From contig CP084167.1 in NCBI GenBank assembly GCA_021513715.1, forward strand, positions 448,001-512,000: a stretch of DNA of 64,000 nt, in the 5' to 3' direction. The notes below the pieces were generated by a model. The model had not been told where the DNA came from. It saw only the letters and a list, made by a program, of their open reading frames with translations, and did no database searches. How positions within the stretch are numbered: position 1 is the stretch's first letter; each line of letters starts with the position of its first letter. This stretch comes from Candidatus Heimdallarchaeum endolithica. GTDB lineage: Archaea; Asgardarchaeota; Heimdallarchaeia; Heimdallarchaeales; Heimdallarchaeaceae. Both the position numbers and the translations under genes were made by a program. Below, in pieces: positions 33,061-34,635 of the stretch.

Positions 33061-33831
33061 GTGGGTAAAATGGTTGAAAATAACTTTTTAAACGATCTAA
33101 ACAACTTTTTGAAAGAATTCAGTTTAGAAAGTTCTAAGATTCTGAAGAACATTAAATTTTTCTTTTCGTTCTTCAGTGAACTAAACAAAGAAATAGAAAA
33201 AAGTAATTTTTCTGCGATTGACAAAAAACTTGTTTCTTATTCTTTTGAAGCCTTTGATTTAACTATAAAAAAAACTTATAGATTTATTCAAGATAACTGT
33301 CTGTATATTTTTGAAAATAAACAAGATTACAAAAATGATGTAAAAAAACTAGATACGTTTGAAACAATCGTGAAAGAGATATATTATGCTTTCGGAGACT
33401 TCTATTTGGAAAAATATAATGGATTAGATTCTTTTATAAAAAATAATAAAATAGAAATAAATTTCAAAATTTACTCCAAATTTAGAACTATTTTTTTAAG
33501 ATTATTAAATCAAATTCAATCATTAAAGCAGTATATAATTGATGATGAGGAACTAAACAAATTAACTAGTTGGAGAAAAACTAAATTACAAGAATTGTTT
33601 CATTCTGCGACTTCAATTAATCTTGATAAGTTAGCTGAGATACTGCATTTTGATAACTCTGCTGAACTTGAACAATGGATAATGCAGATTTCTAATGATA
33701 TCTTTGTAATAGATGATAATATTCTCAAAATATCAAGGTCAGTTACTGATGATGAAATAGCTAAATCTATAGATTCCTTGCTAAACGAGTTTAAGAAATA
33801 TGAAACATTAGGATTAGGAAAAAAAATATGA
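33061..33831 (+). CDS. Soluble helical protein with C-terminal PCI-like winged helix and the IDxLL..GKK tail
   Basis: SINLDKLAEILHFDNSAELEQWI...FVIDDNIL; ends IDSLLNEFKKYETLGLGKKI. Confidence 0.75.
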   Translation: MGKMVENNFLNDLNNFLKEFSLESSKILKNIKFFFSFFSELNKEIEKSNFSAIDKKLVSYSFEAFDLTIKKTYRFIQDNCLYIFENKQDYKNDVKKLDTFETIVKEIYYAFGDFYLEKYNGLDSFIKNNKIEINFKIYSKFRTIFLRLLNQIQSLKQYIIDDEELNKLTSWRKTKLQELFHSATSINLDKLAEILHFDNSAELEQWIMQISNDIFVIDDNILKISRSVTDDEIAKSIDSLLNEFKKYETLGLGKKI

Positions 33832-33840
33832 GGGATTAAA

Positions 33841-34635
33841 ATGGATTTAGTTGAAATAAATTTCTTGGTAAAAGATAAAAATGAAATTATTACTGTAGAA
33901 TCTTCAGTTGAAGAATTAGATCTTTCTAATAGAAACATTAAGGACATCAATTTAGCAGGGGTAGAGAGACTTCCTTTTCTTAAAAGGATTGATCTTTCAA
34001 ACAACAATATTGAAAAGATATATGTAAAACCCCTGAAATATTGTCCAAGCTTACAAATTGTTAATTTGTCAAATAATGAATTAGATGAAATAGATCTATC
34101 ATTTTGTTATTATTTGCCTGACTTAAGAGTTCTAGATTTATCAATAAACAAATTAAGAAAAATTAACCTTTATCACCTTCTTCTGTGCAACTTTCTAAAT
34201 ACATTAGATTTACATGAAAATAATTTCGAAGAACTTGATTTAACTCCACTTATTTCTTTACCTTCTCTTAACCACCTTTTACTCTCTGAGAAAGAAAAGA
34301 AAGTAATGAAACTAGAAGGAATTTTAACTTCTTATTTAAAATCAAAATCACCAATAAAAACCCAACTTGTTGAACTAAAAAAACTATATACAAAAAATAA
34401 TAGAATACCACTAATTAAACAAATAGTAAAAACATACCAAAAAATAAAGAAATCTAGAATAGCGCAGTTTCTTTCTTTTGAAAGTGAAATTGAGTTTGAG
34501 AATTGGTTACTAAATGAATATGGAGATATAAAAACCTTTGAAATGACAGGTGAGTATCTTGTAATTAATAAAGAGGCAGTAAGTGAGTTAGACGAAATGC
34601 TCTCAAAACTAGAAAAATCTTTTGAATCCTTATAG
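33841..34635 (+). CDS. Leucine-rich-repeat protein with C-terminal PCI-like winged helix and a degenerate tail helix
   Basis: LxxLDLSxNxI repeats (about 6); IVKTYQKIKKSRIAQFLSFESEIEFENWL; ends LDEMLSKLEKSFESL. Confidence 0.85.
   Translation: MDLVEINFLVKDKNEIITVESSVEELDLSNRNIKDINLAGVERLPFLKRIDLSNNNIEKIYVKPLKYCPSLQIVNLSNNELDEIDLSFCYYLPDLRVLDLSINKLRKINLYHLLLCNFLNTLDLHENNFEELDLTPLISLPSLNHLLLSEKEKKVMKLEGILTSYLKSKSPIKTQLVELKKLYTKNNRIPLIKQIVKTYQKIKKSRIAQFLSFESEIEFENWLLNEYGDIKTFEMTGEYLVINKEAVSELDEMLSKLEKSFESL

Follow-up and report, generated by a model that had tools for sequence, protein, structure and literature searches.

Two adjacent genes of Candidatus Heimdallarchaeum endolithica, here called P1 (33070..33831, +) and P2 (33841..34635, +), encode small soluble proteins that end in the same C-terminal module of about 85 amino acids as a large set of surface proteins of this archaeon. 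The genes lie in the window that we analyzed, a stretch of 64,000 nucleotides (contig CP084167.1, positions 448001-512000 of a closed 3.33-Mb genome with 31% GC and 7363 open reading frames [ORFs]); positions are those of the window unless they are given as genome positions. The module consists of a winged helix (wH) followed by an end helix with the consensus ID.LL..F.EWE..G.GK, and its wH is, as supported by profile matches and fold models, nearest to the PCI type among winged helices. We consider it highly probable that this is a protein-docking module. That P1 and P2 form a cytosolic adaptor pair in a shared docking network which feeds a Ufm1-like conjugation system has, in our estimate, about an even chance of being correct.

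Both ORFs of the original prediction are present, separated by a spacer of 9 nt (33832..33840, +), and both carry the module, P1 with an E value of 3.6e-23 and P2 with an E value of 1.8e-16 in a search with a family hidden Markov model (HMM). P1 probably starts at the ATG at position 33070, which yields the 253-amino-acid (aa) form on record (256 aa if translated from the GTG at position 33061). Its closest public relative is a hypothetical protein of Ca. Heimdallarchaeum aukensis (86% identity), and a protein atlas search with P1 gave no match. In the AlphaFold2 (AF2) model, residues ~1 to 179 of P1 form a bundle of long helices, which is followed by the PCI-type wH and by the end helix with the terminus ...GLGKKI; the module spans 33574..33822 (+; residues 172 to 254 in the 256-aa numbering). 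P2 is a soluble protein of 264 aa with no transmembrane (TM) segment. It begins with about six leucine-rich repeats (LRRs) at residues ~21 to 150 (Pfam LRR_4, 1.4e-14; LRR_8, 7e-13) and continues with a linker, the PCI-type wH and a shortened end helix that lacks WE..G.GK, the module being located at 34399..34629 (+; residues 187 to 263). These data agree with the helical and LRR make-up that had been proposed for the two proteins. A Shine-Dalgarno-like GAGGG sequence overlaps the P1 stop codon 8 nt before the P2 ATG. Due to this sequence and the 9-nt spacer, P1 and P2 are likely co-transcribed.

To define the family, the HMM was iterated from the module and run on all ORFs of the genome. It detected the module in 26 ORFs, in every case at the extreme C terminus. 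In pairwise searches, the C-terminal 90 residues of P1, of P2 and of a further soluble helical protein (49627..50502, 291 aa) retrieved each other's relatives, and the P1 module matched 49627..50502 with a phmmer E value of 3.4e-13; P2 is linked to the family solely via the profile and its paralogue. The module had been predicted to recur in 49627..50502 and in the cytoplasmic tail of 51406..57621, and more loosely in 9777..14144, and it was found in all three of them. It is located at 50239..50493 (+) in the soluble protein (HMM E value of 1.4e-25) and at the cytoplasmic ends of the two surface proteins, at 51415..51684 (-; 1.8e-20) in 51406..57621 and, in a divergent form, at 13872..14132 (+; 7e-15) in 9777..14144. 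The former surface protein is a type-I protein of 2071 aa with a propeller, TSP3 repeats and a TM segment near residue 1756; the latter is an FG-GAP/TSP3 protein of 1455 aa with a TM segment near residue 1285. The N-terminal half of 49627..50502 is unlike the cytoplasmic region of the neighboring receptor, and the module alone is common to both.

About 18 of the 26 carriers are single-pass type-I proteins with a signal peptide, a large ectodomain and one TM segment, and 80 to 300 cytoplasmic residues precede the module. Their ectodomains are composed of FG-GAP/PQQ propellers or right-handed beta-helices, with calcium-binding TSP3 repeats. Eight of these carriers cluster at 611 to 640 kb of the genome (611845-640165), where paralogous proteins with a beta-helix/NosD-like ectodomain and TSP3 repeats all end in the module. 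The soluble carriers comprise P1, P2, 49627..50502, a second pair of helical and LRR proteins (genome positions 789005-790789), a 615-aa LRR protein, a WD40 protein and three small proteins. HMM, TM and Pfam data place the module both on soluble proteins of the LRR and helical kinds and on the tails that single-pass surface proteins extend into the cytoplasm, in agreement with the original prediction. Two further loci appear to contain damaged members. At genome positions 309696-311369 (-), a 436-aa LRR gene is followed by two stop codons and then by an in-frame module, which is almost identical to that of the neighboring 615-aa LRR-module gene (312335-314182); judged by its sequence, this locus looks like a recent tandem copy that was broken or split. 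At 653453-654355 (-), an ORF of 142 aa with LRRs lies directly upstream of a module ORF of 156 aa, and the locus reads as an LRR-module gene that is split or frameshifted.

The family extends to other Asgard archaea. A profile search of 1.8 billion cluster representatives returned 499 representatives at an E value of ≤1e-3 and 114 at ≤1e-10. Among the top 150 relatives, the module is C-terminal in 138 and present in tandem in 7. Of 301 sampled Asgard genomes, 90 contain the module, mostly with one to four copies, and it is expanded in Heimdallarchaeum and one neighboring genus; the profile search counted the 26 copies of this genome, and at least 14 were found in the sister species. The named members are all annotated as hypothetical proteins of Asgard or Heimdall archaea. 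Front ends of the relatives include LRR, WD40, TPR and HEAT repeats, zinc ribbons, RING-like fingers and polytopic membrane domains, and distant Asgard lineages have module-gene clusters in which membrane and soluble forms are mixed. The family is unmentioned in Wu et al. 2022 (PMC8813620). In the literature searched, the studies of Makarova 2024, Picchianti 2023, Koestlbacher 2026 and Liu 2020 give no account of the C-terminal module family or of its expansion on surface proteins, and the helical and LRR gene pair and the placement of the module in a Ufm1-like operon are likewise not described there.

Conservation within the module is highest in the last 20 residues, which correspond to the end helix. 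All copies of this genome have L71, almost every aligned tail has G84 and K85, and a lysine is found within the last four residues of 123 of 129 C-terminal relatives; P2 and its paralogue end before WE..G.GK. The end helix also occurs on its own. A 1610-aa TSP3-repeat surface protein (2491..7323, +) has a very short cytoplasmic tail, which at 7255..7311 (+) carries the end helix and a GKK motif only (...NIDKLLEEYDKWGNKGKKVN), with no wH, about 12 residues after the TM segment. This protein is the best match of a tail-only HMM in the genome outside the family (14.1 bits, E value of 0.016), and tail-only membrane proteins were also found in another Asgard genome (G282). Because the end helix occurs without the wH, its sequence distribution suggests a separable element that contacts something besides its own wH. 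Two explanations for the motif were discarded. Tails of E1 enzymes contain a VDELI..L-like stretch, yet the tail-only HMM missed E1 among 1767 reported matches, which does not support mimicry of an E1 tail. A KKXX-type retrieval signal or a diglycine-type processing site does not fit G.GKK either, since the spacing is wrong and soluble proteins also have the motif.

The wH was then compared with known folds. The P2 stretch for which a PCI-like pattern had been reported falls on helix 1, strand 1 and helix 2 of the wH and matches the family consensus KI..Y..I.L..LA.LL.F. AF2 modeling of full-length P1 (pLDDT 83.4, pTM 0.74) gave a module with a strand (residues 182 to 184), two helices (185 to 191 and 197 to 205), a hairpin (212 to 221) and a final helix (227 to 246), and the P2 module (pLDDT 78.9) was modeled with the topology H-b-H-H-b-b-H; both models show a helix-strand-helix-helix-hairpin arrangement followed by a helix of 20 residues. 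When the P2 module was submitted to Foldseek, ranks 1 to 27 were all PCI subunits (Rpn12, CSN2/3, eIF3 and lid; probability 0.91-1.0, TMq 0.5-0.6), with a fit to Rpn12 of 1.5 Å over 60 columns at 22% identity. Full-length P1 gave a top 50 that consisted entirely of PCI subunits (E values of 4e-3 to 0.07, low TM-scores), so that the fold search sided with the PCI likeness. In VIA-align, Rpn12 (4b0z_B) was again first for the P2 module (Z 8.0, root mean square deviation of 1.6 Å, 58 residues), followed by TREX-2, CSN3, Csn12, CSN7, eIF3 and UFL1/DDRGK1, amid regulators of the MarR type (Z 6-7.5); the wH domains of UFL1 and DDRGK1 matched at Z 6.0 to 6.8. On the sequence level, the Pfam PCI profile (PF01399) was matched by 53 of 113 family members with a best E value of 5.5e-10, Paf67/eIF3l by 13 and CSN8/PSMD8/eIF3K by 10. 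A paralogue at genome position 1827999 scored 29.7 bits and exceeded the PCI cut-off of 22 bits. Sequence-profile searches of the PDB were led by Rpn12, eIF3a and eIF3e, with weak E values of 0.1 to 0.8.

Several observations weaken the PCI assignment. P1 itself scored 17.9 bits on the PCI profile and stayed below the cut-off; P2 did not pass the profile either and matched CSN8_PSD8_EIF3K with an E value of 0.076 (residues 185 to 223). The profile also matches an Lrp/AsnC regulator of this genome with 24.4 bits; weak single matches are therefore unspecific. Alignment of the module profile by hhalign to three single sequences of this genome, a canonical PCI region (from a 1002-aa protein), the EAP30-like protein and Lrp/AsnC, was uninformative, with a probability of ≤1% in each case. 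Foldseek E values were modest overall (4e-3 to 0.1), and VIA Z scores of 6 to 8 are within the range of common wH matches. A PCI-like solenoid was not seen in the front half of P1 by fold search: residues 1 to 179 gave generic matches (STAT, exocyst and MukF; Z 9-11) that are under the noise level for helical bundles, and no sequence relatives of this half were found outside the genus. No single number is decisive, and the case for PCI is made because the family-wide profile matches agree with two independent fold searches. The earlier PCI claim holds at the level of the wH, where 53 of the 113 members match PF01399 and the fit to Rpn12 is close; for the helical-repeat half of PCI proteins, the fold and Pfam searches of P1 and P2 gave no support. 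Neither protein has such a half that can be demonstrated; P1 has a long-helix bundle in its place and P2 has LRRs. Membership of the module proteins in a canonical complex of the lid, CSN or eIF3 type is unlikely. Neither of the genome's JAB/MPN genes (1517240 and 532468) is adjacent to a module gene. The 1002-aa protein mentioned above (genome positions 1307209-1310217, -) has a full-length Pfam PCI match (28.4 bits, profile positions 4 to 82) and a C-terminal helix-hairpin-helix, and lies outside the module subfamily.

The surface of the module does not resemble that of a DNA-binding protein. Its mean net charge is -2.7 in this genome and -3.9 among the relatives; for helix 3 the corresponding means are -1.4 and -1.9, with a value of -5 in P2. 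A basic recognition helix or a positive DNA-binding surface was not detected by the charge computation, and no DNA-binding helix-turn-helix (HTH) family is present among the 25 commonest Pfam families of the 113 members. One part of the outcome that would have spoken against the original prediction, a DNA-binding HTH or a fold other than a wH, was not observed, as the AF2 models show wH topology and helix 3 is acidic. Since both the module and the helix that would contact DNA are acidic, it is unlikely that the module binds DNA.

A possible partner of the module emerged from gene neighborhoods, which were read in GTDB genomes. About 19.5 kb past the end of the window, genome positions 531553-536286 contain a Ufm1-like conjugation operon with genes for a ThiF E1, a JAB protease, a Ufm1-like ubiquitin-like protein (Ubl) of 88 aa ending in RGVVGL, a UFC1-like E2 (profile score of 25.6 to 25.8 bits at a cut-off of 25), an EAP30/Vps36-like protein and an SPFH protein. 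Ufm1 homologues have been described in nine Asgard clades (Koestlbacher et al. 2026, PMC12962969), UFL1 and DDRGK1 have been traced to Asgard archaea (Picchianti et al. 2023, PMC10183829), and Asgard fusion proteins with UFL1-like domains have been mentioned (Liu et al. 2020, bioRxiv 10.1101/2020.10.19.343400). Among the 301 sampled genomes, the UFC1-like E2 was found in 17, and seven of these Asgard genomes, from five genera of two families, have a module or tail gene at most 10 kb from the E2 gene: G003 and G157 (both of one genus); G205; G040; G210 and G282 (both of one genus); and G153. By our own arithmetic, which assumes one to four module genes per 3 to 4 Mb, chance adjacency would amount to ~1 to 2% per genome, with the reservation that related genomes are not independent. 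Module or tail genes directly follow the E2 gene in G205, G153 and G282. In G205, a 1198-aa module receptor is encoded between the E2 and EAP30-like genes, and three module genes, including a pair of soluble and LRR genes, follow the SPFH gene; a tandem-module protein is encoded directly after the E2 in G153, and three module or tail membrane proteins directly after a Ubl-E2 fusion in G282. The operons of these seven genomes consist of E1, JAB, Ubl and E2 genes, mostly together with an SPFH gene. In the present genome and two related ones of the Heimdall family, the operon comprises both the EAP30-like and the SPFH gene.

Further features of these loci were noted. Upstream of the operon in this genome are genes for a PAS histidine kinase and an integrase fragment. 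In one Asgard family (f14; loci L037, L039-L041, L043-L045 and L047), a conserved gene of ~360 aa precedes the Ufm1-like operon, and some genomes of this family encode a Ubl-E2 fusion (270 to 273 aa); the ~360-aa and fusion products are both unannotated. DDRGK (PF09756) had no match in the genome at an E value of ≤0.1, and the only match to E3_UFM1_ligase (PF09743), at 2186264-2186596 (+), is not a module gene; it lies in a frame of 252 aa with a UFL1-type score of 21.7 bits, or 27.7 bits together with neighboring pieces. A linkage to canonical ESCRT was considered and rejected for this genome, as there is no module gene in the vicinity of its Snf7/EAP30 locus at 1.70 Mb.

The arrangement of P1 and P2 is itself conserved. 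This genome and that of the sister species (80-90% identity) each have two loci at which a helical-module gene directly precedes an LRR-module gene. Another genus has one such pair (283 and 308 aa with a 10-nt gap) flanked by two more module genes, and this pair is 35 to 38% identical to the second pair of this genome; in a third genus, a similar pair of soluble and LRR genes lies beside the Ufm1-like operon. Overall, the pair has been kept across three genera with 26 to 38% identity. It is not a recent tandem duplicate, because the front ends are unrelated. This conservation of a two-gene unit suggests that its products act together.

We therefore favor a model that links these observations, in which the module would serve as a common plug of receptor tails and soluble adaptors. 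P1 and P2 would pair via their modules in the fashion of PCI subunits, by the wH edge and/or the end helix, and would join a docking network of receptor tails, with the LRRs of P2 and the helical bundle of P1 as variable binding surfaces. The network would feed the Ufm1-like system of ThiF E1, JAB protease, Ubl ending in VG and UFC1-like E2, which in the Heimdall family would be joined by the ESCRT-II-like EAP30 protein and SPFH, and its role could be compared with that of the wH-based DDRGK1/UFL1 scaffold in eukaryotic UFMylation. The parts of the model differ in strength. Pairing of module with module is possible but somewhat less probable than its absence, and a functional link between the module and the Ufm1-like system, which is proposed because of the gene neighborhoods in other Asgard genera, is tentative. 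For this genome, we infer the P1-P2 pairing, the shared partner and the Ufm1-like connection. Binding to other modules and binding to a Ufm1-like component are compatible with each other. It is on balance unlikely that the wH, end helix and GK together constitute a universal plug of an Asgard Ufm1-like tagging network, and equally so that receptor tails and adaptors dock on the UFC1-like E2, the ESCRT-II-like protein or SPFH as E3-like adaptors or substrates. If this were true, the DDRGK1/UFL1 scaffold, or else the tag-dependent sorting of receptors in eukaryotes, would have its archaeal precursor in this family.

The favored model also faces contrary evidence. In this genome and in the sister species, the 20 kb on either side of the Ufm1-like operon are free of module genes, and 10 of the 17 E2-bearing genomes have no adjacent module gene, several of them being on short contigs. 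Simple duplication can also create adjacent paralogues such as P1 and P2. The neighbors of P1 and P2 are housekeeping genes (H+-pyrophosphatase, MsrB and TrmO) and a gene for a longin-like protein.

The implications reach beyond this locus. Few known archaea are as closely related to eukaryotes as Heimdallarchaeia, and a PCI-type wH that is widely reused as a probable cytoplasmic plug on integrin- or adhesin-like surface proteins and on soluble LRR, WD40 and helical proteins, all of them annotated as hypothetical, provides a concrete pre-eukaryotic context for this domain. With 253 and 264 aa, P1 and P2 are a small, soluble and tractable case for studying plug function. Should the neighborhood link be functional, the origin of the UFM1 E3 scaffold and the first coupling of a modifier to membrane proteins would become directly testable.

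Among the alternatives, the one that survives best dispenses with the conjugation system: receptor and soluble modules would assemble homotypically, wH edge to edge, into a PCI-like horseshoe or signaling platform that can be likened to signaling by TIR or death domains. A wH with a following helix is the element that assembles the lid, CSN and eIF3, and the fold data assign this very combination to the module; the tandem modules in 7 of the 150 top relatives, the conserved gene pair and the mixed clusters of membrane and soluble forms are also consistent with homotypic contacts. However, 26 interchangeable carriers are unlike a fixed stoichiometric complex, and the strongest conservation falls on the end helix with GK, whose occurrence without a wH points to an external partner. 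There is also no adjacent MPN partner, and the link to the operon is left unexplained. We regard homotypic assembly of this kind, and with it the comparison to TIR or death domains, as distinctly unlikely.

The near-universal G84 and K85 and the lysine within the last four residues of 123 of 129 tails could be read in another way, namely that the module proteins are substrates. The end helix would then be a recognition site, with the lysine(s) two to four residues from the C terminus as acceptors of the Ufm1-like modifier. The ESCRT-II-like and SPFH products of the operon would take over the tagged receptor tails, which would amount to a tag-dependent sorting of receptors in archaea. Under this scheme, P1 would act as a substrate or as a decoy, and P2, which has no lysine tail, as a regulator. 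Tail-only membrane proteins, which are encoded directly after the Ubl-E2 gene in G282 and of which one is present in the window, fit this explanation, as do the EAP30-like and SPFH genes of the operon here and in the two related genomes. However, it is pure inference, lysine-rich C termini are common in AT-rich genomes, the soluble LRR and WD40 carriers fit sorting poorly, and operon adjacency is absent in this genome. The substrate and sorting roles, as well as those assigned to P1 and P2 under them, are improbable.

It is still less plausible, and in our view very improbable, that the module has no partner and is a stable C-terminal cap or dimerization end of coiled-coil tails that was spread by duplication in a rapidly evolving family of surface proteins, with P1 and P2 as by-products. 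The lineage-specific expansion, the tandem receptor clusters, the broken copies and the position of P1 and P2 amid unrelated housekeeping genes would be expected from such a history; however, it does not account for the presence of the module in many Asgard lineages behind unrelated front ends (LRR, WD40, TPR, HEAT, zinc ribbons and polytopic domains), the maintenance of the pair in three genera at 26 to 38% identity, the repeated operonic placement beside the E2 gene or the strongly conserved surface motifs. Finally, a nucleic acid-binding wHTH, which would turn the giant carriers into membrane regulators of the ToxR/CadC type and P1 and P2 into soluble regulators with sensor domains, is highly implausible: the fold is indeed a wH, MarR-, SarS- and AtxA-type regulators match at Z 6 to 7.5, and some PCI pairs, such as those of TREX-2 and eIF3, bind RNA, but the module and its helix 3 are acidic, DNA-binding HTH families are missing from the commonest Pfam matches of the 113 members, and the 26 copies reside mainly on surface proteins, always at the extreme C terminus behind long coiled coils.

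Apart from the module genes, the window contains the gene for the longin-like neighbor of P2 (35742..36182, +), a 146-aa protein with a sub-threshold longin match (Fuz_longin_1, 24.5 bits at a cut-off of 26.1). It also contains a DNA-end-resection operon (22168..28819, +) with an unassigned 437-aa gene, a HerA-like gene, an Mre11-like phosphoesterase and a Rad50-like ATPase, after which a 472-aa coiled-coil protein without a family match is encoded.

Compared with known systems, the module is closest to the wH half of PCI proteins (Rpn12, CSN2/3/7/8, eIF3a/e/k and PCID2/Thp1). It shares with them the wH topology and C-terminal helix, the pattern Y..I.L..LA..L.F....E..L..LI....I.G.ID and the acidic, protein-binding character; its best structural match, Rpn12, fits with 1.5 to 1.6 Å over ~60 residues at 19 to 22% identity, and its relatives are fused behind interaction repeats (TPR and HEAT). 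It differs in its position on the cytoplasmic tails of type-I surface proteins, in its dozens of interchangeable carriers as opposed to a fixed 6+2 complex, in the extra terminal motif WE..G.GK and in the lack of an adjacent MPN subunit gene. HTH/PCI domains have been reported in Asgard ESCRT-associated proteins, and a PCI-like wH forms the C terminus of membrane-associated Ser/Thr kinases in euryarchaeal ESCRT loci, for which oligomerization or binding to wH proteins of the membrane-remodeling system was proposed (Makarova et al. 2024, PMC10936438). These kinases resemble the module carriers in that an archaeal PCI-like wH ends a membrane protein; however, the carriers described here have adhesin- or integrin-like ectodomains, LRRs or WD40 repeats, show a large lineage-specific expansion and a GK end helix, and are linked by neighborhood to the Ufm1-like operon rather than to Vps4/ESCRT-III.

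The wH domains of ESCRT-II (EAP30/Vps22/Vps36 and Vps25) and of CdvB are likewise protein-binding and pair mutually or with a short peptide or helix, as in the binding of the CdvA E3B peptide by the CdvB wH. An EAP30-like gene is part of the associated operon; however, the module is usually a single wH (tandem in 7 of 150 relatives), and EAP30 (PF04157) and Vps25 are absent from the 25 commonest Pfam families of the 113 members. The functional comparison leads to DDRGK1 (UFBP1) and UFL1, whose wH scaffold binds UFC1. The module carriers have the opposite topology, with a C-terminal wH after the TM segment and a giant ectodomain, and this genome shows neither a Pfam DDRGK match nor operon adjacency. 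The likeness lies in the arrangement, in which a protein anchored in the membrane would recruit a soluble wH partner through its cytosolic PCI-like wH, and in a candidate association with UFM1/UFC1/UBA5-type proteins, which is suggested here by gene neighborhood in 7 of the 17 genomes.

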